Assembly: GCA_964518565.1 (NCBI GenBank)
Contig: CAZFGX010000001.1
Coordinates: 360,409-424,408, forward strand
From: an uncultured Gammaproteobacteria bacterium
Lineage (GTDB): Bacteria; Patescibacteriota; Microgenomatia; CAZETR01; Amesbacteraceae
Direction of reading: 5' to 3'
Length of the DNA: 64,000 bases
Shown: piece after piece, positions 3,225-54,200 of the stretch
Layout: the number at the start of each line of letters is the position of its first letter
Numbering within the stretch: position 1 is the stretch's first letter
Notes under the pieces: model-generated
Database searches by the model: none
The model's input: the letters and a program-made list of their open reading frames with translations, nothing else
Told to the model about the DNA's origin: nothing
Translations under genes and position numbers: made by a program

Positions 3225-3611
3225 ATGCCGAAATTTCACTTCAATAAATTAGTTCGCGACAAAATTCCTGAACAAATGGTGGCTGCAGGGGATACGCCTC
3301 ACGGAAAAACACTTGATCCAGAACAAACAATTACCGAACTAGTCAGAAAATTGGCCGAAGAAACCTCTGAACTCCAAACTGCCTCCTCCCAAGAAGTCAC
3401 AAATGAACTGGCAGATATCCAAGAAATTGTCGATGCTATTCGGGATAATCTGGGTATTACCCCGGATCAGCTCAAAGATGCCCAAGACCATAAAAGACAA
3501 CTAAGAGGAGGCTATCAATTACGTAAATATATCAGTTGGGTTCAGGTCAACAAGGATTCTGTGTGGCTAAAATACCTTCGGCAATCGCCCAAAAAATACC
3601 CCGAAGAATAA
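3225..3611 (+). CDS. MazG-like/phosphoribosyl-ATP pyrophosphohydrolase-like nucleotide pyrophosphohydrolase
   Basis: 128 aa, hallmark N-terminal KLVRDKIPE motif and acidic helix (EETSELQ...ELADIQEIVD). Confidence 0.55.
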   Translation: MPKFHFNKLVRDKIPEQMVAAGDTPHGKTLDPEQTITELVRKLAEETSELQTASSQEVTNELADIQEIVDAIRDNLGITPDQLKDAQDHKRQLRGGYQLRKYISWVQVNKDSVWLKYLRQSPKKYPEE

Positions 3612-3884: not shown

Positions 3885-6800
3885 ATGGCCAGCAATTTTA
3901 TTCATCTTCATTGTCATACCGAATATTCGCTTCTTGACGGGCTTTCTAAGGTCAAAAAATTGGTCAAACGTGTTAAAGAACTGGAAATGCCAGCTCTGGC
4001 CATGACTGATCACGGGGTTATGTATGGAGCCATTGAGTTTTATAAAGAATGTCAAAAAGAAGGCGTCAAGCCATTGATCGGTTGTGAAATATATACGGTT
4101 AATTTCGACCACACGAAACGTGAAGGAAAAGGAGAAAACAACCATTTAATCCTCATTGCTAAAGATCATGAAGGCTATAAAAATTTAATGAAAATTTCCT
4201 CAATCGCTCATACAGAAGGCTTTTATTACAAACCCCGAATTAGCAAAGATATCTTACGCCAATATGCCAAAGGGCTATTGTGTACCTCTGCTTGTCCCAA
4301 GGGCGAAATTGCCGAATTAATCGAAGCCGGCAATATAGACGAAACTAAAAAAGCAATCTCTTGGTATCAGGATACATTCGGAGCCGAAAATTATTATTTA
4401 GAAATTCAACGCCATCAATATAAAAATCATTTTGAAGCCGTCAAATCTAATCCAAAAATTCTGGACCGTCTGCAAAAGCTCCAATCTGGTGAAGATGTCT
4501 GGGTCAAGACTCTTATTAATCTTAGTCGCGAGTTAGGTGTTCCTCTCGTAGCCACCAATGACGCGCACTATATCAAACAATCTGACGCCAAAGCCCAAGA
4601 TGCCTTAGTCTGTATCTCTACTGGAAAAAATGTGTCGGATCTTGAACGTATACGCTATATCGACGCCCCTGCATTTTTCGTGACCTCAGAACAAGAAATG
4701 CAGTCCCTCTTTCCAGATGTACCAGATGCCCTGACTAACACACTTAAAGCTGCCGATTCTATTGATTTGCAAATAGAGCTTGGTAAGTGGTATTTCCCCC
4801 AAATCGAACTTCCTGAGGGTAAAGATGCTGGTACTCAGCTTAGATATCTCTGTGACCAGCGTTTGCCAGAACGCTATACAAATATCACTCCTGAACTCGA
4901 GCAACGTATGGAATTTGAATTGGAGGTTATTTGTACAAAAGGCTATGCCTCATACTTTTTGATGCTTTCAGACTTGGTGAACTGGTGTACTGATAACGGA
5001 ATAATCACCAATACCCGAGGTTCAGCTGCCGGCTCAATGGTCTCATTTGTTATGGGTATTACCACCGTCGATCCGATCAAATACCAATTACCTTTTGAAC
5101 GTTTTCTCAATCCTTTCCGACCTTCGCCGCCTGACATAGATCTTGATATTGCTGATGACCGGCGTGAAGAGCTCATTGCCTATGTGACTCAAAAATTTGG
5201 CAAAGACAAAGTGGCTCAAATTTGTACCTTTGGTCGAATGTTGGCCAGAGCTGCTGTTCGTGATGTGGCGCGAGTACTCGGACACCCGTATGCTGTTGGC
5301 GATAGAATCGCCAAGGTCATCCCTCAAGGTGCTCAGGGTTTTCCCATGACATTTGAACGAGCGCTCAACGAAGCTCCAGAATTTCGCACCATGTATGACA
5401 CAGACCCAGTAGTAAAAGAGATTATTGATTTAGCTCGCGATATTGAAGGTAATGCTCGTCATTCATCTGTTCATGCAGCTGGTACCGTGGTTTCGCCCAG
5501 TGATATGCGCGATTTTACCCCTCTTCAGCTCGAACCTAGTGGTGAAAAAATTATCACCCAATACGAAATGCATGCCTGCGAAGACGTGGGGTTGGTGAAA
5601 TTCGATATTCTTGGTATCCGCAATTTATCTATTCTAGGGGCTGCTCGGGATATCGTTCAAAAATCCCGCGATATCAAAATCGATCTCCGTCAAATCCCAG
5701 TAGACGACAAAAAAACCTTTACCATGCTGGCGCGAGGCGATACTATGGGAACATTTCAGCTGGGTGGCTCCGGTATGACCAAGTGGCTCAAAGAGCTCAA
5801 GCCTAACCGGGTCGAAGATATCATGGTCATGATCGCTCTATTTCGTCCAGGTCCTATGGACAATATTTCAGAATTTATTTCGCGCAAACAAGGCAAAAAG
5901 GAAGTCGTCTACATGCACCCCAAAATGCAAAAGTTTTTGGACAAGTCCTACGGCGTGTTGGTATATCAGGACGATCTGCTCTATACCGCATTGGAGTTGG
6001 CAGGCTATGACTGGGGAGAAGTAGATAAGTTTCGCAAAGCAGTGGGCAAAAAAATCCCTGAAGAAATGGCCAAACAACATGTCAAATTCGTTGAAGGTTG
6101 TATAAAAAACTCTGGTCTTACAAATGAAGAAGCCGAAAAAATTTGGGATCTGTTCGTACCGTTCCAGGGATATGGCTTCAACAAAGCGCATGCTGCGAGT
6201 TACGGAATTATCTCTTACCGTACTGCGTACATGAAAGCCAATTACCCAGTCGAATACATGACAGCACTTCTTACTGCCGAAGCCGGCAATACAGATACAA
6301 TTGTCGAAGCTATTGAGGAATGCCGTCGTCTAGGTATCACAGTCCTTGCCCCGGATATCAATGCTTCTGAGACTGGTTTTACTATTGAACCAGACGAAAA
6401 GTCTCTAGATGGACGCGCAATACGTTTTGGCTTATCAGCTATCAAAAATGTTGGTTCTGTTGCGATCGATCTTATTTTACGCGCCCGCCAAGACAAACGA
6501 TTTGCCACTCTGACAGATTTTATCTTGCGAGTAGACAGTCAAAAAGTAAATCGTAAAGTCTTAGAAAGTCTGACTAAGGCCGGCGCCTTAGACGAATTTG
6601 GCAATCGAGCAGCTATTTTGGCAGGGCTAGATAAAATTCGCGAAAAAGGCATCTCAATATCCAAGGCCAAAGAGTCTGGTCAGTTTAGTTTGTTTGGTGA
6701 CGAAGATACTCAGCATGACACAGTCGACGCCTTACCAAATGTCCCTGAATTTGAAAAAGAACAACGCTTGAATTTAGAAAAAGAGTTATTAGGGTTTTAT

Positions 6801-11305: not shown

Positions 11306-11581
11306 TTAGACATTGTGCCGATTGGCGCTGACAATAGTCGAAGCTGCCAAAGCTGTGATCGCGAGCACAATTGCCCCTATTCCACAAAACAGCGCCAAAA
11401 ACAGACGCTCTACGATTGGCACATAACCGGCTTGTCTACATATATCGACAAACAAACTACTTGGCACGCACTGTGCCAATTGATGTTGTCGGTATGCTTC
11501 CAGGCCAATCATGGCCAAAAATGCTCCTAGGAAAAAGACAAAACAAAATGCCCCCAGTGCTTGCCTTGTACCTTTGTCCAT
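11306..11581 (-). CDS. hypothetical small membrane protein (91 aa)
   Basis: ORF with 2-3 hydrophobic helices; GC about 50%. Confidence 0.35.
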   Translation of the reverse strand: MDKGTRQALGAFCFVFFLGAFLAMIGLEAYRQHQLAQCVPSSLFVDICRQAGYVPIVERLFLALFCGIGAIVLAITALAASTIVSANRHNV

Positions 11582-15894: not shown

Positions 15895-16683
15895 ATGGGT
15901 TGGGGCAAAGTAGGTAAAAGAATTTTGGTGCTATGTGTTTTTGTCGGCTTGGGGTTGGCATATGTGTTTGCCTCGGGTTGCAACAATGGCGATATGTTTG
16001 CTCCATTGTGTGGGTTAGGCCAACTCATGTTTTTGGCATTAGGTATTGGCCTGATCGTGGCATTTACCTTGGTCAGTCTGATCATTTTCCGCCCTTGGAA
16101 ATCCTCGGTCTCCGTACTCCCAAACAAGAGTGAGATCTTCAAATTTGTTATCACGCTTTTGTTGGCGATTCCTGTCTGTGGACTTATTTTGGGTGGCATA
16201 TTCTATGGCTATTTAGGAGTCACATTGTTGGCCGACAATCGCACCAAAACCCAAACCATAAACAATTACTCAGTCCAAAATTTCTCTGAATCCCCAGTAG
16301 TCAATCAGGTCACCAAAAAATATACCGCCATCACCGTCAAATTTACTCTGACTGCTGCCAAAGCTGGCAATTATAGTGGAGTGGTTCAGCTAGATGAGTA
16401 TTTTGGCCATTATATGACTACTCGATTCGACGGAGTCTATCTGCCGGCCAACACACCTGTACCATTTATGTTCATTCTTGAACCACAACCTGAATTTTTT
16501 ACCTCACAGGCTAATGGTCCATATTATCTCAATCTAGATATTTGGCCAGTAGATCCGGGCAGTGCGTTTCGCCATGTAAAAATTACTGGCGACAAAAATG
16601 GAACCAATACGTTAGGAGGTCCGACCAAATATATTCCTGGTCTACAAACTCGCAGCTATCTATTTACCGATTTTGCCAATTAA
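15895..16683 (+). CDS. hypothetical membrane protein with extracytoplasmic domain (262 aa)
   Basis: 3 N-terminal TM helices followed by a roughly 150-aa polar domain. Confidence 0.5.
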   Translation: MGWGKVGKRILVLCVFVGLGLAYVFASGCNNGDMFAPLCGLGQLMFLALGIGLIVAFTLVSLIIFRPWKSSVSVLPNKSEIFKFVITLLLAIPVCGLILGGIFYGYLGVTLLADNRTKTQTINNYSVQNFSESPVVNQVTKKYTAITVKFTLTAAKAGNYSGVVQLDEYFGHYMTTRFDGVYLPANTPVPFMFILEPQPEFFTSQANGPYYLNLDIWPVDPGSAFRHVKITGDKNGTNTLGGPTKYIPGLQTRSYLFTDFAN

Positions 16684-17812: not shown

Positions 17813-17841
17813 TTGCTAATAGTCCTATAGTATTATATAAT
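17813..17841 (+). promoter_or_regulatory. sigma70-like promoter TTGCTA-17-TATAAT with embedded CCTATAGTATT motif
   Basis: -35 at 17813-17818, -10 at 17836-17841, ATG of GT2 gene at 17851. Confidence 0.5.
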
Positions 17842-17850
17842 ATAGAAGAT

Positions 17851-19776
17851 ATGGACAAAAAGTCAATATTTTCTCCTCGACAATGGCTAGTATTTTCTAT
17901 TCTTGTTTGTGCCTGGTTGGCCTCTGTTTGGCTATTTTGGGGTTGGTGGTTGCGACCCGAGCATCGCGGCGACCCTCTTTTATTCTGGTTAGTTAGCTTC
18001 GCCTTCTTCTACGACGGGACTTTTTTGCCGACGATGTTTTTGTATTATCTTGGTCGAGCCAAAAAACCGGTGACCAAAAAAGTTACTGAAAAATTATCTA
18101 CAGCCAAAGTCGCCATGATCTCGCTCACTGTGCCAGGGTCAGAAGCCTTGGAAATAGTCGAACGTCAGCTTGTGGCTATGAAGGCTGTAAAATTTCCCCA
18201 TGACAGCTGGATACTAGTAGACAAAGTTCATTCTCCTGAAATAGCCAAATTGGCCAAAAAACACGGAGTAAAGTATTTCTGTCGTCATGATGCAGATGCT
18301 TGGGGAGCGGATAAAGTGGCCTATTGGAATCAATCGGTTCCTCCTTTCAAAGCTAAAACCAAAGCCGGAAATGTAAATGCCTGGATCGACGCCCACGGAG
18401 CCAAATATGACTATTTTACCCAGCTAGATATTGATCATTTGCCAATCCCTGAATATTTAGACAAAGTATTGGGCTATTTTGCCAAACCAACCATTGCTTG
18501 GGTGCAGGCACCAAGTGTGTATGGCAATTTGGAGTATTGGACTGCTAAAGGTGCCGCCGAACAAGAACTCGTCCTCCAAGGACCATTGCAAATGGGCTTT
18601 TATGGCAGTACCGATACTCCATTTATTATTGGTAGTCACAGTACCTATCGCATGTCCGCAGTCAAAGAAATTGGTGGATTTCAGCCTACTCGTGCCGAAG
18701 ATCATTTAGACACACTTTATCTGGCCACCAAAGGATACACTGGAGTATTTTTGCCTGAAGTTATTGCTACCGGTGACGGGCCAGAAACGTTTGAAATTTA
18801 TCTGTCCCAACAGTTCGCTTGGGCCTATTCGTTGGTTCAAGTACTAATGAGCCATGCACCAAAAGCTCTCTGGCGTCTAAAGCCATCTGTGGCATTACAA
18901 ATGTTGTTTGCCGAGACTTGGTACCCACTGTGGACACTGGCCATGCTTACCTTGTTTATCTCTCCGTCTATTGCCCTGATCACAGGCCGACATATTTCAG
19001 TCGTCAATTTCTGGGACTTCACACTTCGAAGTGCCGGCATGGGGCTAGTTGGTTTTGCTGCCTGGCTGTGGAGCCGTCGCTGGCATCAGCCCAAAGGTTT
19101 GGGTCTATCATGGCGGGGGATTATGCTGCACAGTGCCCGTTGGGTGGTAGTATTTTCAGCTATTATCCAAGCAGTATTCCGAGTAAAAAAGCCGTACATG
19201 ATTACCCAAAAAGGCGGCAACGAAGGCAAGACTGTGAGTATTGGTGCTCTGATGCCGTATATTATTCTATTGTACTCAGTTCTAGGTGTTTGTTTGTGGT
19301 ATATCAGCCGAGTCGGTATTGGGCCTACCCAGGGGTATTTACTCTTTAGCCTAGAGGGTGCATTTTTTATGAGTATTGTCGCCATATTACCTGTAGTTTT
19401 ATTAATTAAAGAACATGGTTGGATCTCTTTCAAAAACCATAAATTAGCCCTAAGTGTCATTGGTATTGCCTTTATCGTATTTATTGTCGATTCGCTCTTT
19501 GCTTATCCATTAGTCACCAAGGCCATCTGGAACGAATCAGAACAACCAATGCTTATGCCAGTAGCTAATACTATCATTACGCCAACAGTAACCCCTTCAC
19601 CAACTCCAGTTCCATCTATCAGCACATCAAATATTCACATCGTTCAAAACGGTGAATCCCTCTGGTCTATCGCCCAAAAATATTATGGCGACGGGTCAAA
19701 GTGGCCCCACCTCTCTCGATCGTTTAACTCAACTACGATTCACCCCGGCGACCGAATCGAATATAATCTCCCTTAA
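17851..19776 (+). CDS. GT2-family processive glycosyltransferase (cellulose/chitin synthase-like) with C-terminal LysM domain
   Basis: multi-TM; catalytic-core motifs (QLDIDH, RAEDH, SQQFAWAYS); Pro/Thr linker then LysM (IHIVQNGESLWSIAQKYYGDGSKWPHL...IHPGDRIEYNLP). Confidence 0.75.
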   Translation: MDKKSIFSPRQWLVFSILVCAWLASVWLFWGWWLRPEHRGDPLLFWLVSFAFFYDGTFLPTMFLYYLGRAKKPVTKKVTEKLSTAKVAMISLTVPGSEALEIVERQLVAMKAVKFPHDSWILVDKVHSPEIAKLAKKHGVKYFCRHDADAWGADKVAYWNQSVPPFKAKTKAGNVNAWIDAHGAKYDYFTQLDIDHLPIPEYLDKVLGYFAKPTIAWVQAPSVYGNLEYWTAKGAAEQELVLQGPLQMGFYGSTDTPFIIGSHSTYRMSAVKEIGGFQPTRAEDHLDTLYLATKGYTGVFLPEVIATGDGPETFEIYLSQQFAWAYSLVQVLMSHAPKALWRLKPSVALQMLFAETWYPLWTLAMLTLFISPSIALITGRHISVVNFWDFTLRSAGMGLVGFAAWLWSRRWHQPKGLGLSWRGIMLHSARWVVVFSAIIQAVFRVKKPYMITQKGGNEGKTVSIGALMPYIILLYSVLGVCLWYISRVGIGPTQGYLLFSLEGAFFMSIVAILPVVLLIKEHGWISFKNHKLALSVIGIAFIVFIVDSLFAYPLVTKAIWNESEQPMLMPVANTIITPTVTPSPTPVPSISTSNIHIVQNGESLWSIAQKYYGDGSKWPHLSRSFNSTTIHPGDRIEYNLP

Positions 19777-19843
19777 TCCGCAGTTCTCAATCGCTGAGAA
19801 CAGTTGGATCATATTTGGGTTCTTTCAAAAATTGGAGGTTGTC

Positions 19844-20411: not shown

Positions 20412-20431
20412 ATATCAAATAACCTATAGTA

Positions 20432-20460
20432 TTGATTTTTAGGCTCAAATCGTGTAAAAT
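20432..20460 (+). promoter_or_regulatory. sigma70-like promoter TTGATT-17-TAAAAT preceded by ACCTATAGTA motif
   Basis: same architecture as promoters at 24955 and 26010. Confidence 0.55.
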
Positions 20461-20547
20461 GCAACTATTAGAAAACGTTTGGCAACACGCCGGATAGACT
20501 TCTAAAAATCTCGTTCTTTGATATTTCTGCAAATAAAAGGAGTTTGT

Positions 20548-21471
20548 ATGAATAGCATTGCCATATTAAAGGCTCGGGTTTCTGTGCTTACAGAACAAAT
20601 AAAACCAGCAGTCCGCGATCACAGGTTCTATCTAATACTACTAGGCACATTCACCCTAGTTTTACTGATTCGACAGTTCACAAACAGTATCCCGTTTAGT
20701 ATGTTCAACTTTTTTTTCATTCGCTGGGAATGGGGAGAGTTTCTAAATATTCCTTGGTTCCTACTTCTAGTAGGACCAATTCGAAACTTGATTGATTGCA
20801 TTCGCACCAGAAACACCAAACGCGAAAATATGCTCATCTTATCGAATTTTGAAAGCAACATTGTAACGTCATTCTTGGCTGGAATTTTCGAAGAAATATC
20901 GTATCGTTGGCTCGGTTTTTACTTCGCGATCTCCACATTCTATCTGAGTGAACTATTTACTGGTACGCGATTGGGGATGTGGATTTATTCACATCTCGTG
21001 GTGTCAATTGGAATAACCCTTGTCTTACTAGGTATTGGGGCGGTATCTTACATAAACGGAATCGAATCTTTTCCAAGTATGGCCGTTGCTGCAGTATGTT
21101 TGGTTCTTTTTGTATTGTGCGCGATCATGGTCGGTCTCGCAGCTTCGAAACAACTCTATACTTCAATCATCATTCCTATCGTCGATTGGGTAACTCAATA
21201 TAAGTTAAGCACTCAATTGCACGAATATGGTTGGATTGTGGGCGCAGCAGTTATTAGTGTAAATGGCAGATTTAGTAGTGGCCATGGATATCAAGGGTTT
21301 TTCGGCTTAGTCAACTCTTGGATCGGTGGAATTCTGTTGTTTTGGTTTATGTTCAATTTTGGCTTACCTGTCGCGATTGGTATACACGTGCTATATGACG
21401 TGGTTATCAATTCTATTGTTGGAGCAGACTCTTTTATTGAAATGAGCACAGCTACATATAAACGTAGCTAA
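20548..21471 (+). CDS. CPBP-family (CAAX protease/Abi-like) intramembrane metalloprotease
   Basis: multi-TM; EExxxR motif (FEEISYRWLGF) and C-terminal HxxxD (HVLYD); AAGGAG RBS 7 nt upstream. Confidence 0.55.
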   Translation: MNSIAILKARVSVLTEQIKPAVRDHRFYLILLGTFTLVLLIRQFTNSIPFSMFNFFFIRWEWGEFLNIPWFLLLVGPIRNLIDCIRTRNTKRENMLILSNFESNIVTSFLAGIFEEISYRWLGFYFAISTFYLSELFTGTRLGMWIYSHLVVSIGITLVLLGIGAVSYINGIESFPSMAVAAVCLVLFVLCAIMVGLAASKQLYTSIIIPIVDWVTQYKLSTQLHEYGWIVGAAVISVNGRFSSGHGYQGFFGLVNSWIGGILLFWFMFNFGLPVAIGIHVLYDVVINSIVGADSFIEMSTATYKRS

Positions 21472-21490
21472 GGTTGCAGAAATAGTCACC

Positions 21491-21517
21491 GCCCGCTTAC
21501 CAAAGCGGGCTTTTTTT
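21491..21517 (+). terminator. rho-independent terminator (GCCCGCTT/AAGCGGGC stem + T7)
   Basis: perfect 8-bp stem, 4-nt loop, TTTTTTT; between convergent CPBP and response-regulator genes. Confidence 0.7.
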
Positions 21518-21893
21518 ATCCCTGTTGCGAAAGAAATGAATTCAATTCCGACAAAATATTTTGTGGCTTTACCTGGGCTTTTATCAAATACCCTTGAGCA
21601 CCTAGATCAAATGTCTGGCCAATAATATCTTCTTGGCCCAGATTAGTTAGCATAAACACTGGGGTAGCTTTAGAAGGGGAGCCGTCTTTACGAATATCTT
21701 TCAAAATAGAAATCCCGTCTTTTCCTGGCAACATGATATCCAGTAGTACTAGGTCATATGCTTTAGCATTCACTTTTTCCAATCCATCATTTCCGTTCAA
21801 AGCAATATCCACTTCATATCCACCATCCGTCAATATTTTTTTATAAATATCAACGATATAGGCATCATCTTCAATCAGTAAAATCTTTTTCAT
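21516..21893 (-). CDS. single-domain response regulator (CheY-like receiver only)
   Basis: 125 aa; LLIEDD...DLVLLDIMLPGKDG...K receiver motifs; no output domain. Confidence 0.85.
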   Translation of the reverse strand: MKKILLIEDDAYIVDIYKKILTDGGYEVDIALNGNDGLEKVNAKAYDLVLLDIMLPGKDGISILKDIRKDGSPSKATPVFMLTNLGQEDIIGQTFDLGAQGYLIKAQVKPQNILSELNSFLSQQG

Positions 21894-24220
21894 ACAGAAT
21901 AGATATTAGGATTCAATATAACGCCATGCGGCTTTGATTGCAAATGGCTCCTATCTGCCACTTTTGCCTTTTCTAGCTCCATTGCACTTGGCATGGGTAG
22001 GTCAAAGAAAAAAGTCGACCCTTGACCAACAATACTTTTTACCCCTATTTTTCCCTTGTGCATATCAATTATGGATTTAGAAATAAATAGACCTAGTCCC
22101 GTACCCTTGGATCCCATTTCCAGCGTCCCATGTACTCGATAAAACTTGGTAAACAAGTGAGAAATAGCCTCTTGAGGTATGCCGTGTCCCGTATCACTAA
22201 TTTCTACTCGTAAATATGGCAATTCCTCAAAAATTTGCGTACCCAATTTTATAGTGACCGTGCCTTCAGGTGATGTATAGCGAATCGCATTGGTTAACAA
22301 ATTGGTTACCACTTCCCGAATTCGCATAGGGTCCACAATCAGTTCAGAATGCGCCATATCAAACCCTTCTGTCTGGACATGCAAATGTTTCATTTCAAAC
22401 TGGTCTGCTAGCATTTCTAAGACGTCTCGCAAAATTTGCTTCATATCCACAACTGTGGTTTCCATAGACATTTTGCCATTTTCGATTCGTGATGTATTCA
22501 ATAAATTGTCAATCAGCCCAGACAAATTTTCTGCACTCGATCCTAGCCGTTTTATTATTTCGGAATCCTCACTACTCCATTGTTTTTGTTTCAATATTTC
22601 TGTATACCCACGAATAGCCGTCAACGGAGTACGCAGCTCATGAGCTGCCATAGATACAAAGTCTAGTTTCATTTCTTCGAGTTGGCGTTCTTTGGAGACA
22701 TCATGAATTGTCAAAATACAGCCAATCCCGACGCTTCGTCCCTCACGAATTTGTCCGGATACTACATTTACAAATTTTTCTCCAGTCAACCGAGCAGTTT
22801 TAAGTAAGAGGTTTTTTTGACTCCACAATATGCCCGTTGCCTCCTCCAGATCTACTGGGCTATAAATCGCCGTTGGCACCTCAATATCCTGGTTAAATAG
22901 CTGCATTACACCATCAATAGGCTTGCCCAATACTTCAGCTTGGCTAAATCCTGTAATATCGCTAGCAATAGCATTAAACAGCACGATATTTCGTTTGATA
23001 TCGATCGCAATCACTGCATCCGAAATACCTGAAATCACAGTAGCCAATTTATTTCGTTCAGCTGAAATAATTTCTCGATCGTTTTTTATGCGCGACGCCA
23101 TAGTATTAAAAGAGTGAGCTAGAGTTTCTAGTTCGTCACGAGAGTTTATATTTACTCGGTAGTCAAAATTGCCCATACCCAGTGCATTGGCTGCATTTAC
23201 CAATAAGGCGATTGGATCAGTAAATTTTCGAGTAATAAAGTAGCTCAGCGGTCCACCGAGACATACTCCACCAATCAGTAGCAATACAGCAAAGGTGGAT
23301 ATACGTACCACATCTGCCATAGCCACATCGTATGGCTGTTGAATAATAATTGCCCAGAGCGTTTTTGGAATACTGACGAATGTTCCATATACATCTTGCT
23401 TGTCTTCATTGATATATCGAACAATATTTGCGGTTTCGTGAGTCGAATCCTCTTTTTGCACTGAATTTATATACTGCTGGACAGGTAAAAAGTGACTAAA
23501 GTCAGCCCCATTTACCAGAAAATCTTTATTGCGATGTGCCACCACTTGACCATTACGATCTACGATATATACAAACCCAGATTGATCCGATCCTAGTGTA
23601 GTTAGTTCGCCAAACAAGTTGCTCAGATTTACGGTTACTTCTAAAACACCCAAAATATCTCCCGGACTGCGAATCACTCCTACACCTGCGGTTGTTAAAT
23701 CTGTCAGTCGCTGTCGGTATTCTGGAATAGTGATTGGAATAGCAATAACCACTGTCGGTTTGTCATCTACAAACGACACATCGGAAATAGACTCCTTGCC
23801 ATAGCGAAATGTCGTCGTCAAAAAAGACTGGCTTTTACTTTTATCTTGTAGCAGCTGGGTGGGTATTTCACCTTGTTGAGTAATCGCCAGTTCCTCATGA
23901 CCTGTCATATCTATCACTGAAATTTTTTCTATATCCTGATCTTGAGCCAAGAGTGTAAATAGTTCAGTTCGTTGAAGTGGCTTATTTTGGGACAAAAAAG
24001 CGGCTGATTGCGAATGGATAATCAGTGCTTGAATCTTGGCAGTAATATAGTCTTCTACTTTTTCTGATGCTCGAAATCCGATCTGTTGTTGCGCGTCTTG
24101 AAGTCTGGAGTGGAGGATTGGCTCGACTGTTTTGATCCAAAGTATGTCGATCGCTAGCAAAATAAACCCCATCAGACTGGCTGTGGTTAAGAGTACTTTT
24201 GCTCGCAGGGACAGATGCAT
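21890..24220 (-). CDS. sensor histidine kinase (2 TM, extracytoplasmic sensor, HAMP, PAS, HisKA, HATPase_c)
   Basis: H-box MAAHELRTPLTAIRGY; G-boxes DTGHGIP and GTGLGL; PAS-like segment; overlaps RR gene by 4 nt. Confidence 0.9.
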   Translation of the reverse strand: MHLSLRAKVLLTTASLMGFILLAIDILWIKTVEPILHSRLQDAQQQIGFRASEKVEDYITAKIQALIIHSQSAAFLSQNKPLQRTELFTLLAQDQDIEKISVIDMTGHEELAITQQGEIPTQLLQDKSKSQSFLTTTFRYGKESISDVSFVDDKPTVVIAIPITIPEYRQRLTDLTTAGVGVIRSPGDILGVLEVTVNLSNLFGELTTLGSDQSGFVYIVDRNGQVVAHRNKDFLVNGADFSHFLPVQQYINSVQKEDSTHETANIVRYINEDKQDVYGTFVSIPKTLWAIIIQQPYDVAMADVVRISTFAVLLLIGGVCLGGPLSYFITRKFTDPIALLVNAANALGMGNFDYRVNINSRDELETLAHSFNTMASRIKNDREIISAERNKLATVISGISDAVIAIDIKRNIVLFNAIASDITGFSQAEVLGKPIDGVMQLFNQDIEVPTAIYSPVDLEEATGILWSQKNLLLKTARLTGEKFVNVVSGQIREGRSVGIGCILTIHDVSKERQLEEMKLDFVSMAAHELRTPLTAIRGYTEILKQKQWSSEDSEIIKRLGSSAENLSGLIDNLLNTSRIENGKMSMETTVVDMKQILRDVLEMLADQFEMKHLHVQTEGFDMAHSELIVDPMRIREVVTNLLTNAIRYTSPEGTVTIKLGTQIFEELPYLRVEISDTGHGIPQEAISHLFTKFYRVHGTLEMGSKGTGLGLFISKSIIDMHKGKIGVKSIVGQGSTFFFDLPMPSAMELEKAKVADRSHLQSKPHGVILNPNIYSV

Positions 24221-24281: not shown

Positions 24282-24935
24282 ATGCCAAGCAATAACGGAA
24301 ATAACGAAACAATTCCCCAAGCCCCAAAAACTTCTCATGTTGCAGTATATATTCTGGTTTTCTTGTTAGTTTTCTTTGTCGGTGTATCAGGATATCTGCT
24401 CTACAATACCTATACTTCACCCAAATCTGACACCAAGTCGATGACTAAGGCAGCCAGTACCCCTCAATTGTCTATACCCAAAGATGCAGTAAAAATTTCC
24501 GGCTGTATTTCCCATGAGGGTGAGCATTGGGTTCAACCCCAAAATCTTCCCAATGGACCATTTTACGTTGCCTACAACAACAAAGTATTGGCTTTTGAGT
24601 ACATGCTTTCAGCAGACCAAATTCCAGGCAACGACATTGCCCACATGACTCCAGAGCAGTCGATGAAATACCTCCAAGACAACAAAATGTCTCTCTCAGA
24701 TTTTGTCCACCAACTAGACAAGACCTATGAATTACCCGCTAGCAGTCTCAAAGACTTTAGTATCCACTGGACACCTCCCCATGCCGGCTTTGTCGTTCCA
24801 CATTACGATATCCATTTTTACTTGGTGGACAAGTCAGAACGTGACCAAGTCTGTCCAGCAGCCACCTTTGACCAAATTCTCCCAGCCGACATGGTCCAAG
24901 ATCTGAAGCAACGTGGTATCGCTGTCCCGCAATAA
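24282..24935 (+). CDS. membrane-anchored hypothetical protein (217 aa)
   Basis: single N-terminal TM then polar domain; divergent from HK gene. Confidence 0.5.
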   Translation: MPSNNGNNETIPQAPKTSHVAVYILVFLLVFFVGVSGYLLYNTYTSPKSDTKSMTKAASTPQLSIPKDAVKISGCISHEGEHWVQPQNLPNGPFYVAYNNKVLAFEYMLSADQIPGNDIAHMTPEQSMKYLQDNKMSLSDFVHQLDKTYELPASSLKDFSIHWTPPHAGFVVPHYDIHFYLVDKSERDQVCPAATFDQILPADMVQDLKQRGIAVPQ

Positions 24936-24954
24936 CCTTCTGTATCCTATAGTA

Positions 24955-24983
24955 TTGACTTTTTAGCTTCAAAATGGTATTAT
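24955..24983 (+). promoter_or_regulatory. sigma70-like promoter TTGACT-17-TATTAT preceded by ATCCTATAGTA motif
   Basis: consensus -35, 17-nt spacer containing TAGCTTCAA, -10 TATTAT; roughly 100-nt leader to ATG 25086. Confidence 0.6.
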
Positions 24984-25060
24984 AAAGGCTATATAAGCCT
25001 ATCAAACAGCCTCAATCTCGTGGCTACTTTGGAGGATTATTTATCTAGTTTAGTACCTTA

Positions 25061-25073
25061 AAATTGCGGATTT
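25061..25073 (+). repeat. leader motif AAATTGCGGATTT (inverted partner of the post-stop AATCCGCAATT motifs)
   Basis: immediately 5' of RBS AGGAGA of gene 25086; reverse complement of motif at 27289. Confidence 0.5.
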
Positions 25074-25085
25074 AGGAGAAAAAGT

Positions 25086-25358
25086 ATGTTATCCATACTA
25101 GTGACGTTTGTTGTAGGTCTTGCGTTAGCTTGGTTTGGTGAAGGTCGAATCATCGACATTCGTACAAATGAAGCCTACGCCGAAATATCTGATCAACCTC
25201 ACAGCGATTTCCAAAAAAACGAATCAGAACGTTTTGTTACAGTTTTTGCCCTAATTATGGGGCTGGGAATCATTCTGATTGTCATAAGTATTGTTGGCCT
25301 TGTTCTGTTTCTTTTCGCCCAAACTTGGGTGATAGATATAAACATTCATTTTCGATAA
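25086..25358 (+). CDS. small membrane protein (90 aa, 2 TM)
   Basis: ORF with AGGAGA RBS. Confidence 0.5.
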   Translation: MLSILVTFVVGLALAWFGEGRIIDIRTNEAYAEISDQPHSDFQKNESERFVTVFALIMGLGIILIVISIVGLVLFLFAQTWVIDINIHFR

Positions 25359-25376
25359 ATAAGGAGAAAAACAGAT

Positions 25377-25622
25377 ATGCAACCTATCCAAAGTTTTATG
25401 CCACTCGTAGGTGTCGTTCTTCTGGTCATTGGCTTTTTTGTTTTTGGTGCGTGCCGTATGTATATACGGGTCGCAAGCCGGTCAATCGTCCAGTTCGCCG
25501 AAAGTCAGGAGGGCACAAAGCCCGGGGCTATGGGACGAGCACTCACCGCGCTACTCCAAGGCGTAAGTATTGCGGCAATCGGTGCCGGAATCATCGCGTT
25601 GGGTCTCGCAGCGATTCAATAA
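25377..25622 (+). CDS. small membrane protein (81 aa, 2 TM)
   Basis: ORF with RBS aggagaaaa. Confidence 0.5.
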   Translation: MQPIQSFMPLVGVVLLVIGFFVFGACRMYIRVASRSIVQFAESQEGTKPGAMGRALTALLQGVSIAAIGAGIIALGLAAIQ

Positions 25623-25657
25623 CTCAATCATTTTTTCAAATTCATAAGGACAAATGA

Positions 25658-25924
25658 ATGATAAACCAAACAATTAGTTTTGTGCTGCACTATCCCTTTC
25701 ATCTCATTGTTGGTGGAGTGATTGCAGCCGTAGTCTTCGGTGTCATTTCTCTGGTCGTTGCAGCTATCGGCAAAGAAAAGTCTAGTTTCACTGTCGGTGG
25801 CGCATATGTGTTCTATGGCTTGATGTATTTGAGTGGAGGAGTGGTGGCAATCACTATCTTCATAAACATATCGTTTGCAGTCATCGTATTTCTATCGAGC
25901 GTCATTTACGCATTGCAAACATAA
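25658..25924 (+). CDS. small membrane protein (88 aa, 2-3 TM)
   Basis: ORF with RBS aaggac. Confidence 0.5.
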   Translation: MINQTISFVLHYPFHLIVGGVIAAVVFGVISLVVAAIGKEKSSFTVGGAYVFYGLMYLSGGVVAITIFINISFAVIVFLSSVIYALQT

Positions 25925-25956
25925 CAATCCCGTTTTTAATCCGCAGTTTTCGCTTT

Positions 25957-25991
25957 GGCGCTTGGGGTTTTACCCTAGGCGCCATTTTTTT
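25957..25991 (+). terminator. rho-independent terminator
   Basis: GGCGCTTGGGG...CCCTAGGCGCC stem then ATTTTTTT; preceded by TAATCCGCAGTTTT motif (25938-25951). Confidence 0.6.
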
Positions 25992-26009
25992 GCTATATAA
26001 CCTATAGTT

Positions 26010-26038
26010 TTGATTTTTTAGCCTCAATAGCGTATAAT
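26010..26038 (+). promoter_or_regulatory. sigma70-like promoter TTGATT-17-TATAAT preceded by ACCTATAGTT motif
   Basis: near-duplicate of promoter at 24955 including spacer TAGCCTCAA. Confidence 0.6.
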
Positions 26039-26104
26039 TGAATCCATATAAACCTATCAAACAGCCTCAAACACTGAAGCTAGGCGATAGAGTTTAGAAC
26101 CTTA

Positions 26105-26119
26105 AAAATTTGCGGATTT
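26105..26119 (+). repeat. leader motif AAAATTTGCGGATTT
   Basis: second copy of the leader motif, 20 nt upstream of ATG 26139. Confidence 0.5.
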
Positions 26120-26138
26120 TTAAATTCAAATAGGAGAA

Positions 26139-26903
26139 ATGTATATGATACTCGCAAGTCTTTTGTTCCTTATTTTAGCCACGTTGAATATAGCGATCTA
26201 TCGACAGTACAAAAATGTATTGCCCCAAGCCAGCAAGATTGGACTACTGATCTTGTCGGTAATGTACGCCATCCTTTCTGGTGCTTACATTTTTACGATC
26301 TTTGACACAAATTTTTCAGTCAGCGTTCTAAAACTGTATGGCGTGATACTTATGTCTGTATCCTACATGGAAATAGTTGTTATAAAAGGACTGGAGTCAG
26401 ACTTCCCAGAGAGTAATCCCAAGATTGGTCAAATACCAATTCTTTATCTCTGTTTAGTCTTGCTTGCAGCAGGTTTTGGGTTGTTTGTTATTGGAAGTTT
26501 TGAAACAGAGGACTCTGCCTTTCAAGTAAATATCCTCATGTCGACGCATGTGTTGGCCTTTCTTATCTTATCTAGTTTTTGTCTTTATATCGAAAGAAAA
26601 TATCGACATCTAGTTCACGATAGAGTGGACTGGAGTCTCGTCTCACTGGCCATTTTGTGCAGTCTACTTTCAAGCATATCTTTATGTACAATGTCTCTGT
26701 CAGTGGTTGATATTCTTTGGATTCATATTGGTGGATATTTGATTGCCTTGTTTGCCGCAATTGTGGCAATCATGCAGTTTGTTCTCCTCCAGGTCGAATA
26801 TCCTTCAATCAAATCAGTTGCACAATATATGGTCTTAGGGTGTTCAATCTCTCTTATCATTCTCGGCGCGATTCTCACGAGGGTTGTAATGCCTCAGGGG
26901 TAA
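26139..26903 (+). CDS. polytopic membrane protein (254 aa, about 8 TM)
   Basis: hydrophobic ORF with RBS TAGGAGAAA. Confidence 0.55.
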   Translation: MYMILASLLFLILATLNIAIYRQYKNVLPQASKIGLLILSVMYAILSGAYIFTIFDTNFSVSVLKLYGVILMSVSYMEIVVIKGLESDFPESNPKIGQIPILYLCLVLLAAGFGLFVIGSFETEDSAFQVNILMSTHVLAFLILSSFCLYIERKYRHLVHDRVDWSLVSLAILCSLLSSISLCTMSLSVVDILWIHIGGYLIALFAAIVAIMQFVLLQVEYPSIKSVAQYMVLGCSISLIILGAILTRVVMPQG

Positions 26904-26906
26904 GAA

Positions 26907-27284
26907 ATGATGCTATCGCACGGGTTTGTAATAACAATCTGGAGTTTGGTTTTTATGAATGGAGCCATAAGTCTGGTTAGGCAAAATACAAATAAAGTCC
27001 TACCGTGGGTCTTTTTGGTAGTGACGTTAGTATTGTTATTCTTAGGCACGGCGATTATTGGTGGAAGAATCTTGCCAAACCCGCTCAGGTCTGGGACCGA
27101 ATTAGGATTGGTCAGCGAAGCGTTGTGCGTAATTCTTTGGATAGGTTTGGTGATTTACAAAATCACCAAAAGCCAAAATCTTTTCCTCCGATATATTTGG
27201 CTTGGCATGTTCAGCACCACTTACGTATCTCTAGGGATTGGCGCTTGGCTAATCATGGCTGGTCTAAGTAGTTACTATAAATAG
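26907..27284 (+). CDS. membrane protein (125 aa, 4 TM)
   Basis: ORF 3 nt after previous gene. Confidence 0.5.
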   Translation: MMLSHGFVITIWSLVFMNGAISLVRQNTNKVLPWVFLVVTLVLLFLGTAIIGGRILPNPLRSGTELGLVSEALCVILWIGLVIYKITKSQNLFLRYIWLGMFSTTYVSLGIGAWLIMAGLSSYYK

Positions 27285-27306
27285 AAAAATCCGCAATTTC
27301 TTTTCC

Positions 27307-27345
27307 CGGCGTCTGACAGACAAAATCTGTTAGGCGCCTTTTTTT
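27307..27345 (+). terminator. rho-independent terminator (about 12-bp stem + T7)
   Basis: GGCGTCTGACAG/CTGTTAGGCGCC stem followed by TTTTTTT; preceded by AAAAATCCGCAATTTC motif at 27285-27300. Confidence 0.65.
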
Positions 27346-27469
27346 ATTTTCGCTTGGAAAAATGGTAAAATCTAGCCTCAAACAACCATATACTACAGCT
27401 GTGTATGACTTGTTCTAGTAGTACATTCAAATTGCAGATAAAAATTCGAACAAAAAAAGGAGAATCTGT

Positions 27470-27826
27470 ATGATTCAAGTAATTGAACCAACTCAGGAAA
27501 TACTGAGTAAGTTTATCGGTGGTCAACATGAAGTCCATGACAAAAGAAATACATATGTATACCGTGGTGAAACACAAAACATCACATTGAATGAAGGTAC
27601 GATAAGCATTACTTATGTCTGGCAGGCAAAGCTTGTTGATGGAATCTGGTATGAAGTTAAGCCAGAAACGTATGCAACTGATATCACCATTAGCCTTTTT
27701 GCTGCGCGTCGAGATGGAGTTTTATGTTATCAAACCACTATTATCGGTGAAATCGGCACACTTTTCCCACAAAGTTGGCACGAACCATTGCGCCGGCCAG
27801 TCGTGAGTTTAAAGGAGGAAACATAA
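27470..27826 (+). CDS. hypothetical protein (118 aa)
   Basis: ORF with RBS AAAGGAGAA. Confidence 0.5.
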   Translation: MIQVIEPTQEILSKFIGGQHEVHDKRNTYVYRGETQNITLNEGTISITYVWQAKLVDGIWYEVKPETYATDITISLFAARRDGVLCYQTTIIGEIGTLFPQSWHEPLRRPVVSLKEET

Positions 27827-28135
27827 ATGAGTTCAGTTCTCAACGAACTTCAGCCCTATATCGGTAAAGTCTTGGAAATTGAAGATAATCGTAAGTTGTA
27901 TTTAGGCCAAATCCAACAAATCGAAATCATTGCCCACGGTTTCCTCAAAATCACTTTCTCACAACTTATCACTAAAGAAGGCGCTTTTGGTTGGATTGGG
28001 ACTACGGCAAATGCGTATGCCATTTTTGTTGACCGCATCAAGTGGTTTAGAAATGCTGACAAAAAAATTACCGGTTTCCAGTATGACCAACAAACCTGTA
28101 GGTTCCTAGAACCATCTGCAATGCAAATTGTTTAG
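27827..28135 (+). CDS. hypothetical protein (102 aa)
   Basis: start ATG abuts stop of upstream gene; RBS AAGGAGGAA. Confidence 0.5.
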   Translation: MSSVLNELQPYIGKVLEIEDNRKLYLGQIQQIEIIAHGFLKITFSQLITKEGAFGWIGTTANAYAIFVDRIKWFRNADKKITGFQYDQQTCRFLEPSAMQIV

Positions 28136-28141
28136 TTTTCA

Positions 28142-28169
28142 TAGCGCCCTTTAATCGGGGCGCTTTTTT
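28142..28169 (+). terminator. rho-independent terminator (AGCGCCC/GGGCGCT stem + T7)
   Basis: perfect 7-bp GC-rich stem, 7-nt loop, TTTTTTT. Confidence 0.75.
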
Positions 28170-51202: not shown

Positions 51203-54200
51203 ATGTATCAGATTTGTAAAACAGCCAACGTCTTTCCTACTCGATTAGTCGACCGTTCGCCAACGCTTGGAATTCCAGAGAGTGACCTACTCAATAGTCG
51301 AGACGCGCTGCTAAATTTAGTAGCAGAAGCGGGTAAGTTTAGTAACGAAAAACAAGCAGACGATTGGATAGAATCTACAGCTTCGCGTATTTCTGAATTC
51401 ACCATGAGTCGTGCTCAGATCCAAGCAGAGGCTATTAAATCCAGCCTGAGTCCAGTAGTTATTAAAGATACAGTCCGTAGCATGCTTACTTCAGAACATA
51501 ATGTGGATTTCGATCAGTATTCATTGCAAACAATCGCTGCATTAGCCGAAGCTACAAATATGCCTGGTCCTTTTATGGAAAATGACCAAATTCGTGAACA
51601 TGTTATAAAACAAATTAGCTATACATATACACGCGTAGACGATGGTGTCTATTGGCAGGCCAGACGAAGTGAATGGATTAGTGCATACAAAAAATTATTT
51701 GGCGAAGATCTCGAAGCTGCTGTCAGTACAGAAGATTTGGCAAGAGTCGCAAGTCAATATTTCGATTGGTTGCGTGACGGCAATCAACTAACAAAAGATC
51801 AGATTCATATCTTAACTCGCGATAAAGACAAATTTTACCCCGGAGGTGATGTAATGAATCGTTTTATTACTCAAGAAGTATATAAATATTTAAATCAGGT
51901 AGACAAAGACACGCAAAACTTTGGCAGAATTGAACTATCATATAGAAATTTTATAAACCATCTTCGAACATTTTCCCAAGACTATTTAGACAATGACCCG
52001 ATATTGGCGAGTCCTGAGAATCCACAACTACTTGGAAATATAGAATATTTTTTATCCAGCAAAGATTTTTTACACCAACAAGATAGATTGGTTGATTTCT
52101 TACATGCTGTTGATGAGTCACTGGGCTGTCCCGTCTCACAAGAAATAAATTTAGGAATAGCATTTTTACACAGCAATATTGAATCTTTAGTAGACAATAT
52201 GCCGGAAAGTTATAAATCATACAAATCCTTAGCTGAAAAAATATCCTGCAATTTTTCATTTACACCCGAGCAAGCCAGTCAGCTAATAGCCAAATTGATC
52301 AATAAATACCAATTTTCCAACTACACCACTCCGAGAGCCCTCTCTGAAGATATAAAAAAAATGTATCAGTTGTTGGGTCAGGCGCCAGATCGAGAACGGG
52401 ATGTCATGCTTCTGACAAGAAAAGCCTACGATTCTGCCTGGGGTTCAGAAACCAAACTTGAAGAAATGCGCGATGAGTTTAGCCTGAATTATGATCCAGA
52501 TAGGCTGCAAGCAATTCAAAAAAACTGGACCAACAGATTTTTAGAGCGACCAACAGACAATGGTATGTCATTGATTGCAGCTGCAAAATATGCCGCGTTT
52601 CGACCGACAGGTGAACAAGGTGTAAGTCAAAAAGCGGTCGAATCTAGATGCTGGAGTCTACTTCGATCCAAAAACGGTATCCACCAAATTGAACTACTTC
52701 GTGAAGCAACAGGTATAACTCCCACATTCGATGATCAAAATCGTCTCAATCAAGCATATGCTGGCGCGCTTTTTGATAAAGATTTTAGTTTGTACAAATC
52801 AATTCAATCGCTGACCGGCATTCAGCCAGATTTTTCCGACCGGCAAGTAAACTCTGCTGTAAAAGGCTATATCAAATATTGCATATCAAGTAGAGGACAT
52901 GGTTTTAAGGAAACAGTTACTGAACTTAGTGAACAACTTGGAGTACCCCTAAATTATAACGAAGACGAACTTAAAGAAATTTTACGTTCGTCTTTAGGTG
53001 TGCCTCAAGAATCCAGTCCAGTCGTGAAAGAATTCTTGACTCGAATAACTGGCAAAACTGAACTGCCATTTGAAATGGTAAATGGGTCAGTTCAGTCCCT
53101 ATACCACAGGATTATTAATCGTGCTGGAAATATGGATATCATGGTTTCAAACCTACAAGAATTTACCGGTATCAAACCAGAATGGAATCAAAAAGAAGTT
53201 TTAGATTCAATGGCAGCGTTTATAAGCACTCCTTTCGTTTGCGTCAAAATAGCCGAGACAACCGGCATTAAACTTTCCATGGCTGATGAAAGTTTTATTC
53301 ATCATGTCAAAGATCAGTATATAAAATTTTTAATCCGCAAAAATACTTCTGCTGCCGAAGCATTGATTGTGGCTTTTGGTAAAGAAATAACAGTTTCTCC
53401 AGCTGATGCTGTTCAAATATTAAAAGATAATTATATATCTGCAAAAACAGATCTGACAGGCATGCTGGATCTGGTCGAACAAGCCAAAGAGGGTGGGGTA
53501 TTTTCCCTAGATGCTCAAAGGATTGACCAACTGGTTCAAGAGTGGGCCAATGTCGTATCTACGTCAGACACCACTAGTCGAGTAGGAGAACTACGTCTGG
53601 CCTGTGAAAAATTTGGCTTCTCTTATTCAAAATTATCCTCTCCAGCGCAACAAAAATTTGCCGCGTGGTTTTTGGATCCTCAGGTGGCCAACGAAGCTAG
53701 ATATTTTGCCACATCGCCAAAAACAGAAATTCAAGAGCCATTTAAACGTGAATTGGAACAAGTTCTAAAAAAGACCCTTATATCAAATTCACCAGAGCAT
53801 ATGTGCACACTGCTCGATAACGTCAAAGACAACTATCCGTCTTTGGCTGAACAAGTTCGTTCGCGAATATATATCCAATGTAGAGACAATTTGAGCCGTA
53901 TTATCGTTTTATCTGGTTTAGATGATTGGGTTCCTTTGTTGGAGACAATGGCCCCATCACCTCAAGAACGACAAAGTTTTTACGCCCAAATCATGGAAAA
54001 TCGTGTACCTAATCCAAATGAAATGGAACAATTTATTAAATATTCGTTACTCGCTGGCAAGCAAGTAGATTTAGAACAATACACCACACCATTAATCAAT
54101 AGTTTTATGTTAAACCCTCTCTCTGCTACCAGCTTCTTTTCGGTACTCGACGGTTTGTCTGAAAAAAACCCAGCCATAAAATTTTCATATTCCCAATTAA

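Follow-up and report, generated by a model that had tools for sequence, protein, structure and literature searches.

Introduction

Pairing between the two ends of a bacterial messenger RNA (mRNA) has been described for a few individual genes, namely hbs, icaR and RNAIII. In the hbs mRNA of Bacillus subtilis, a helix of 14 base pairs (bp) between the untranslated regions (UTRs) at the 5′ and 3′ ends modulates how RNase Y cuts the leader (Braun, Durand and Condon 2017, PMC5737220). Staphylococcus aureus icaR covers its own ribosome-binding site (RBS) with a UCCCC anti-Shine–Dalgarno (anti-SD) motif in the 3′UTR, forming a duplex that is cut by RNase III (PMC7821165). OppZ and CarZ of Vibrio cholerae are autoregulatory small RNAs (sRNAs) derived from 3′UTRs; once processed by RNase E, they work in trans at translation start sites and set off Rho-dependent termination (PMC7821165). 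Pairing over such distances can be short—an 8-nucleotide (nt) sequence several hundred nt from an RBS can pair with it in vivo in B. subtilis (PMC12697547). Here we describe four adjacent plus-strand transcription units, U0–U3, in a 64,000-nt stretch (hereafter the window) of contig CAZFGX010000001.1 from an uncultivated small-genome bacterium, each carrying a 5′UTR element, L, that is complementary to an element, R, at or just past the last stop codon.

Paired or repeated flanks are also familiar from other settings. In integron cassette arrays, imperfect inverted repeats recur between small genes that are unrelated and vary from strain to strain, and the repeats that bound invertons can be as short as 9 bp, as in the Escherichia coli fim switch. 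The processing stalks of ribosomal RNA (rRNA) operons form where the flanks of a long transcript segment pair and close a loop. Invertons carry short inverted repeats with a common core, flanking segments near surface-protein genes (bioRxiv 10.1101/2023.03.11.532203, 10.1101/2023.10.25.564076).

In the reading that we favour, and to which we assign a probability of roughly 0.55, L and R would be the two strands of a long-range helix formed in cis within each mRNA (hereafter the clasp). The likeness to hbs is close in several respects: a short long-range helix (14 bp in hbs, 9–13 bp here) joins the 5′UTR and 3′UTR of a single mRNA, its 5′ strand is placed upstream of the SD sequence, and it is proposed to guard against ribonucleases in a way linked to translation. 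Both 5′UTR/3′-end complementarity (U0–U3 and unit Ua of a distant relative, L025) and compensatory changes are found. The present case differs in recurring across at least four adjacent operons and the distant relative, with a TGC core and co-varying arms, all as yet predicted only, and in concerning polycistronic mRNAs of 0.8–1.4 kilobases (kb) with a special promoter. As in icaR, a 3′UTR would pair with the 5′UTR of one and the same mRNA, but L sits beside the SD rather than on it (U1–U3), its end falling 1–18 nt before the SD across U0–U3, and the helices are short for RNase III. The rRNA stalks are far longer, serve as substrates of RNase III and border stable RNAs, whereas the transcripts here are mRNAs. 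What would be new is the clasp as a family, recurring in at least four adjacent operons plus a distant relative and marked by a common core with compensatory variation; the kind of device is already known, and rare.

Four transcription units share one plan

Each unit runs from a promoter through a 5′UTR containing L, the genes, and R to an intrinsic terminator. The units occupy 20423–21510 (U0), 24946–25984 (U1), 26001–27338 (U2) and about 27363–28164 (U3), and their series is broken only by a two-component system on the minus strand and a 217-amino-acid (aa) gene. The initial annotation had described a duplicated promoter–leader–L–genes–R–terminator cassette with unrelated orphan cargo; that architecture is correct, and all its elements lie where they had been placed. 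Its count of two cassettes was too low: the window has four, and the distant relative at least one more.

A motif common to the two original cassettes, AAATTGCGGATTT, occurs on the plus strand at 25061 (0 mismatches) and 26107 (1 mismatch), with its reverse complement at 25937 (2 mismatches) and 27287 (0 mismatches). At the level of the individual elements, all on the plus strand, L0 (TATTTCTGCAA, 20522–20532) lies 3 nt before the SD-containing AAAGGAG (20536–20542), and R0 (TTGCAGAAATA, 21474–21484), 2 nt past the stop codon, is its perfect 11-nt complement. L1 (AAAATTGCGGATT, 25060–25072) ends 1 nt before the SD AGGAG (25074–25078) and matches R1 (AATCCGCAGTTTT, 25938–25950) over 13 bp, including one G–U. 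L2 (TTGCGGATTTTT, 26110–26121) lies 10 nt before its SD (26132–26136); its partner R2 (AAAAATCCGCAA, 27285–27296) begins at the base after the stop codon, and is complementary to L2 over 12 bp and to L1 over 13 bp. In U3, L3 (ATTGCAGAT, 27431–27439) finds a 9-bp complement in R3 (ATCTGCAAT, 28114–28122), within the last seven codons of a 102-aa gene.

These elements sit at fixed positions in the predicted transcripts. L and R all lie between a predicted promoter and a predicted terminator (the U3 promoter call being weak), with 48–70 nt from promoter to L and 1, 3, 10 or 18 nt from the end of L to the SD. R starts 0–13 nt past the last stop, or inside the last codons in U3, and is separated from the terminator stem by 5–9 nt in U0–U2 and about 20 nt in U3.

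A further example comes from L025, reached through the U0 protein (40% identity). Its unit Ua encodes an unrelated 213-aa protein behind a promoter of the same class (CCTATAACTTGACTTTTGAGCTCAAAT...TATTAT), with L (TTGCAGAAAG) in the 5′UTR, R (CTTTCTGCAA) directly past the stop codon, and a terminator. A second unit of this contig, Ud, has the promoter class with TTTAGCCTCAAAT and a different predicted closure, between the 5′UTR/SD and the 3′ end of the coding sequence (CDS).

Complementarity beyond chance and co-variation

We set the L/R matches against a background of 864 pairings between the 5′ and 3′ regions of all genes in the window. Of these pairings, 4.7% contain a perfect complementary run of 9 nt or longer, 1.3% one of 11 nt or longer and 0.7% one of 12 nt or longer, and several of the long background runs are merely terminator stems or T-runs. 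The cognate runs are 11 nt (U0), 12 nt (U2) and 9 nt (U3), with 13 bp including the one G–U in U1. Scanning 21 terminator-like sites for a complement of at least 9 nt in an upstream intergenic region recovers U0, U2 and U3 (and U1 if G–U is allowed), with one exception, a 9-nt match 3.5 kb apart at a weak minus-strand site (stem 11392–11408). Clasp-type complements are therefore a specific feature of these units and no genome-wide habit within the window; the initial annotation had counted motif pairs of similar frequency in random intergenic sequence as telling against its proposal, and the 21 sites compared speak otherwise. Duplex energies from RNAduplex, compared with mononucleotide shuffles, proved uninformative for such AT-rich pieces, and exact-run statistics and whole-transcript folds were used instead.

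Related contigs fall into three groups: strain A (the window, identical to L001), strain B (L002, L014 and L016) and lineage C (L015). Seven L/R pairs were aligned on the invariant TGC, with R written as its reverse complement, which places all units in one orientation; an early idea that the U0 motif is flipped was dropped on these grounds. The bases that flank the core differ between units but agree within them. The paired L strand reads AAAA(T/C)-TGC-GGATT in U1 (13 bp, one G–U), T-TGC-GGATTTTT in U2 of strain A (12 bp), AAAT-TGC-GGATTT in U2 of strain B (13 bp), AT-TGC-AGAT in U3 (9 bp), TATTTC-TGC-AA in U0 (11 bp) and T-TGC-AGAAAG in L025-Ua (10 bp). Changes on both sides are seen in 10 of the 15 aligned pairs. 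Paired cells make up 82.9% of the alignment; shuffles give 69%, with 0 of 500 as high as the alignment itself, and sliding the partner by 1–3 columns gives 31–50%. The sole internal mismatch, in U1, is a U–G on the sense strand, kept in both strains. L2 itself differs between strains A and B, and there the helix slides (12 versus 13 bp) on an unchanged R2, preserving its length.

Whole-transcript folds predict end-to-end closure

We folded eight complete predicted transcripts, from predicted start to terminator end (0.8–1.4 kb). The L:R helix is part of the minimum-energy structure in each of U0–U3, with 11 bp in U0 (core pair probability about 0.98–1.0), 13 bp in U1 (0.93–1.0), 12 bp in U2 (0.9–1.0) and 9 bp in U3 (0.8–0.93). 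Equally high L:R probabilities are predicted for U2 and U3 of strain B, for the 13-bp helix of strain B U1 (1,387 nt, with a different third gene) and for the 10-bp helix of L025-Ua.

The pairing stands out against other genes of the window. Expected pairs between the first and last 70 nt number 26.0 (U0), 17.0 (U1), 14.4 (U2) and 9.4 (U3), while the same measure gives 0–8.2 in 13 control genes of similar length; all four units thus rank above all 13 controls (rank chance 1/2380). U0 alone has an extra predicted helix, joining the SD to the 3′ end of the CDS. For U2, folding of the strain A transcript, but not of the strain B one, gives additional helices between the conserved CDS ends, which we regard as incidental.

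A predicted clasp and its alternatives

Given the co-variation and the whole-transcript folds, a 5′–3′ pairing element is the best supported of the four roles that the initial annotation had suggested for the two motifs. Pairing of L with R at the RNA level, in whatever form, seems to us likely, and the modules are best described as a family with a co-varying 5′UTR–3′UTR clasp, attached to a special promoter and bracketing strain-hypervariable orphan genes. Once its 3′ end has been made, the mRNA would close on itself through L:R, placing the ribosome-binding region and the last stop codon beside a duplex that borders the terminator stem. On the model of hbs, the clasp might shield the 5′UTR and the 3′ end from ribonucleases, lower initiation on idle mRNAs, or both. 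Since R lies at or near the last stop codon, it would have to be melted by a ribosome that terminates on the last cistron, which would tie the open and closed states to translation. Speculatively, then, the clasp would protect or silence untranslated mRNAs and be opened by translating them.

If the pairing is real, its recurrence with a shared core would show mRNA closure to be a reusable, evolvable regulatory module. The units also form a natural test set for effects on decay and translation, varying in helix length, in distance to the SD and in whether R lies in or out of coding sequence. A stronger proposal would make the clasp a dedicated system and no set of four coincidences: a regulon for strain-variable envelope proteins, with a special promoter, whose mRNAs are closed by a UGC/GCA core duplex with co-varying arms, read by a dedicated factor (a double-strand RNA-binding protein or a nuclease being the candidates). 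We find this rather unlikely; were it true, mRNA closure would give a bacterium with a reduced genome a shared and addressable layer of control.

Several points weigh against the clasp. The transcript ends, the pairing and the effect are all predicted, and a helix of 9–13 bp spanning about 1 kb must compete with ribosomes in the cell. As L does not overlap the SD, there is no evident direct block of translation. All the evidence is drawn from a single narrow lineage (three strains and one distant contig), U1–U3 are paralogous, and U0 and Ua were found partly through their complementarity, leaving few independent events. The homologues of the U0 protein gene in L024, L025 and L026 keep no clear L:R pair. 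L026 has an L-like CCTTAAATTTCTGCGGAC in its 5′UTR and no R. L024 offers only a 7-bp SD/anti-SD match, in which ATCCTCC directly past the stop codon complements the gene's own SD, GGAGGAT (3558–3564, 4480–4486); the two are predicted to pair, and this is the only icaR-like anti-SD that we see. Judged from these contigs, the clasp is not universal in the wider clade. Within the window, a lone R-like copy on the plus strand (TTAATCCGCAGTT, 19773–19785) has no cognate L in its own transcript. It overlaps the stop codon of a 709-aa glycosyltransferase/LysM gene, is identical to R1 over 13 nt, is followed by a 7-bp hairpin lacking a T-run, and could pair with L1 over 11 bp including one G–U. Finally, an inverted repeat acting as DNA would give the same complementarity and the same co-variation.

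That last point has a concrete form, the chief rival to the clasp. L and R could be inverted repeats for a site-specific recombinase that flips the promoterless segment of SD and genes, switching the operon on and off by phase variation. The dimensions are suitable—repeats of 9–13 bp flank a segment as in invertons (bioRxiv 10.1101/2023.10.25.564076), and a common TGC core with unit-specific arms would fit one recombinase acting without cross-reaction. Hypervariable membrane-protein cargo is a typical target of phase variation, lone motif copies exist, and a strain B contig that starts inside L3 could mark a break at a polymorphic junction. However, a classical inverton holds its promoter within the segment, whereas here promoter and terminator lie outside and the coding block inside. 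Only the forward orientation is seen in the window, L001, L002, L015 and L016, the opposite strand of the segments offers no alternative open reading frames (ORFs), and R3 falls within coding sequence. The U1 T/C difference, tolerated in RNA as G–U, breaks the DNA repeat. No recombinase was found among the annotated genes at 16145–36903 or 20 further proteins. We consider inversion improbable, though recombination at L/R would amount to an unusual whole-operon phase switch.

The complementarity might also operate between molecules. Released together as a 3′UTR-derived sRNA, R and the terminator would act in trans on their own L and on sister L elements, giving auto- and cross-regulation. R has the appropriate position, directly upstream of a terminator hairpin with a U-tail, and the OppZ/CarZ precedent (PMC7821165) is matched in that the sequence just upstream of the operon terminator complements the 5′ part of the operon. 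R2 is a perfect match to L1 over 13 nt and to L2 over 12 nt, and the lone copy at 19773 could be a further source. Set against this, the unit-specific co-variation of U0, U3 and Ua points to a single R partner for each L, thermodynamics already strongly favours pairing in cis, the RBS is not covered by L, and neither a processing site nor a chaperone is known here. Regulation in trans as the main role of R accordingly receives a low probability from us, similar to that of inversion. Under the favoured cis clasp, R on a 3′-end fragment could also act in trans on L1 or L2, as a variant of the same RNA-level mechanism.

Conserved modules bracket exchanged genes

Contigs L016 and L002 overlap and merge into one strain B locus. 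Compared with strain A, its promoter, leader, L, R and terminator, together with the whole of U3, are 92–100% identical, while the gene interiors of U2 share about 60% of their DNA and 51–53% of their protein sequence (window 26198–27247 versus L002 1380–2425). In place of the third U1 gene, strain B has an unrelated 157-aa gene and about 200 nt (window 25623–25936 versus L002 426–1120), and past this replacement homology picks up exactly at R1. Recombination has thus left a mosaic whose edges are sharp. In U2 the breakpoints fall within coding sequences, one about 85 nt past L2, into the first gene, the other 37 nt ahead of the final stop codon, and therefore the exchange looks like homologous recombination with the conserved modules as arms rather than site-specific exchange at L/R. 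Bracketing genes that differ radically between near-identical strains, the modules may mark the envelope proteins under the strongest diversifying pressure in the lineage.

These edges bear on another pair of explanations, in which L and R are operators for one regulator at both ends of the operon or the terminal inverted repeats of a small mobile cassette. The core does recur singly and partnerless (the L026 5′UTR and 19773), the modules bracket cargo exchanged between strains, and U1 homology resumes exactly at R1. An operator fails to explain core flanks that are alike within a unit and different between units. For a cassette, the initial annotation's suggestion of a mobile footprint finds no support in the U2 breakpoints, which are not at L or R, and neither target-site duplications nor a transposase was seen. 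Both versions strike us as very improbable, well below inversion or trans regulation. An integron array would show the same combination of small, unrelated, strain-variable genes and repeated inverted-repeat elements; here, though, every unit has its own promoter and terminator, with no attC-type structure (GTTRRRY core) and no common Pc promoter, and no integrase domain was found in the annotated genes at 16145–36903 and the 20 further proteins.

Some contig ends fall at the variable parts of the locus. Position 1 of L014, a Logan contig of strain B (SRR8893623), lies inside L3 (...TTG|CAGATAAAAATTCG), and the end of L016 and the start of L002 are within 40 nt of each other in the first U1 gene. 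Such assembly breaks could reflect co-existing alleles or structural polymorphism. Between the replaced third gene and R1, L002 930–1123 contains two short overlapping frames, one reading MKLTAENVKQIMVA to a stop, the other 50 aa long and running to the TAA of TAATCCGCAG; together they resemble a single small gene with a frameshift.

Lineage C shows 73% DNA identity in the flanking gene, about 88% identity over the promoter and the first 85 nt of the module (a hand count on the alignment), and an L that is identical at 10 of 10 positions. This pattern of conservation indicates purifying selection on the promoter, leader and L blocks. A lack of leader conservation in relatives, which the initial annotation had counted as telling against its proposal, is not observed, the modules being kept in strain B (L002/L016) and lineage C (L015).

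Further afield, the leader 18-mer gave only chance matches in unrelated taxa when genome contigs were searched, a promoter 21-mer gave only chance matches in metagenome contigs, and the promoter box met only unrelated, apparently coding matches in viral contigs. The 1.0-Mb contig and the gene content give a tentative impression of a CPR-like bacterium, and the lineage is rare: across the collections scanned, there is no Rfam, Pfam, genome or metagenome match beyond its narrow bounds.

Promoters, leaders and terminators

A 27-nt promoter block, CCTATAGTWTTGAYTTTTTAGCYTCAA, has copies at 24946 and 26001 only (0 expected), and a leader 18-mer, CCTATCAAACAGCCTCAA, at 24998 and 26053 only (0.05 expected). 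In U1, the promoter module (24946–24983, +) comprises CCTATAGT, the −35 TTGACT, the spacer box TTTTTAGCTTCAA and a TG-extended −10 TATTAT; a consensus scan reads it as sigma-70-like, TTGACT-17-TATTAT with the TG extension, at 24955–24983. The U2 module (26001–26038, +) has CCTATAGT, the −35 TTGATT, the spacer box TTTTTAGCCTCAA and the −10 TATAAT, and is likewise sigma-70-like in the scan (TTGATT-17-TATAAT, 26010–26038). That of U0 (20423–20460, +) consists of CCTATAGT, the −35 TTGATT (20432), the spacer box TTTTTAGGCTCAA and a −10 TAAAAT ending at 20460; the block at 20423, reading CCTATAGTATTGATTTTTAGGCTCAA...TAAAAT, precedes the gene for the 307-aa membrane protein. For U3, a putative extended −10 promoter (TGGTAAAAT, 27363–27381, +), followed by a AGCCTCAA box at 27374–27381, is a weak, by-eye reading that the promoter scan did not list. 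Before gene 27470, a stretch of 125 nt forms a degenerate third module, in which the box at 27374 lies downstream of the −10 and not in the spacer.

The promoter class can be written as TTGAY, 7–10 nt, TCAA, 3–9 nt, TANNNT, with CCTATAGT directly upstream of the −35. It is present at U0, U1 and U2 and at Ua and Ud of L025 (1913–1955, 4470–4505); the window has a single further match of this expression, on the minus strand at 7621, with neither the CCTATAGT block nor the spacer box. An invariant 7-nt interval between the box and the −10, as the initial annotation had it, does not hold, although the elements themselves do. The conserved spacer, TTTT(T)AGSYTCAA, reads as a TTGA-N9/10-TCAA dyad symmetry. 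The AGCCTCAA box lies between −35 and −10 and recurs exactly 43 nt downstream in U1 and U2, within the 18-mer (24998–25015 in U1, 26053–26070 in U2, both +). Sharing of so rare a promoter suggests that U0–U2 are co-regulated at the level of transcription, and the conserved spacer suggests a dedicated regulator or sigma specificity.

At the other end of the units, the intrinsic terminators (all +) lie at 21491–21510 (U0), 25956–25984 (U1, strong), 27308–27338 (U2, strong) and 28143–28164 (U3).

The leaders show little structure of their own. Compared with shuffles, the 100-nt leaders have no extra fold stability (z-scores −1.7 to +1.2), and their consensus fold has 6 bp with no compensatory pair; a riboswitch or attenuator reading was dropped for want of a fold better than shuffles and of co-variation. 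Rfam, searched at gathering and permissive thresholds, gave nothing relevant, detecting only two transfer RNAs in the window, and its best matches in 24800–27600 have E values of 2.7–7.7. The 18-mer region has no complement of at least 9 nt elsewhere in the window.

Cargo genes and neighbours

U1 encodes membrane proteins of 90, 81 and 88 aa (25086–25358, 25377–25622 and 25658–25924, +), and U2 a 252-aa multi-pass membrane protein (26145–26903, +) and a 125-aa membrane protein (26907–27284, +). The first U2 gene had been drawn from 26139; the frame is open, but the start is more likely 26145, giving the 252-aa product on record. All five are real open frames with two or more hydrophobic segments each, and none has a match in Pfam, NCBIfam, PADLOC or PHROGs, where the cargo proteins and their neighbours as a whole also lack a significant match. 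The 252-aa protein has one relative among 5.8 billion sequences, and an exhaustive HMMER search of 1.84 billion representatives with its family returned only that one known relative; both U2 proteins are lineage-specific orphans. The cargo is thus orphan, as the initial annotation had it, but its description as tiny membrane proteins does not extend to every unit (252 aa in U2, 307 aa in U0, two soluble proteins in U3).

The U0 cargo (20548–21471, +) is a 307-aa multi-pass membrane protein, weakly CPBP/Rce1-like. In its six-member family, E115, R120, H246, H280 and D284 are invariant, and two of the six members weakly match the Pfam Rce1-like/CPBP family (best E value 2.8e-4). It is possibly a divergent CPBP-type intramembrane protease. 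The U3 cargo (27470–28135, +) comprises two small soluble proteins of 118 and 102 aa, weakly paralogous (mutual similarity E value 0.002) and with no family match. An AlphaFold model of the 118-aa protein was unusable (predicted local distance difference test score 45.8).

Between U0 and U1, the minus strand (21516–24220) encodes a 776-aa dCache/HAMP/PAS histidine kinase and a 125-aa receiver-only response regulator without a DNA-binding domain. This two-component pair is syntenic with the 217-aa gene in relatives that have no cassettes (L011, L012 and L013), and the flanking 217-aa protein has five relatives. Elsewhere in the window, a 2,096-aa ORF (51203–57493) has no Pfam match at E ≤ 1e-4. 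The glycosyltransferase gene whose stop codon overlaps the lone R-like copy seems nearly leaderless: its ATG at 17851 lies 9 nt past the −10 TATAAT of a promoter at 17813–17841, and the gene caller's start, 17647, is upstream of this ATG (region 17836–17853).

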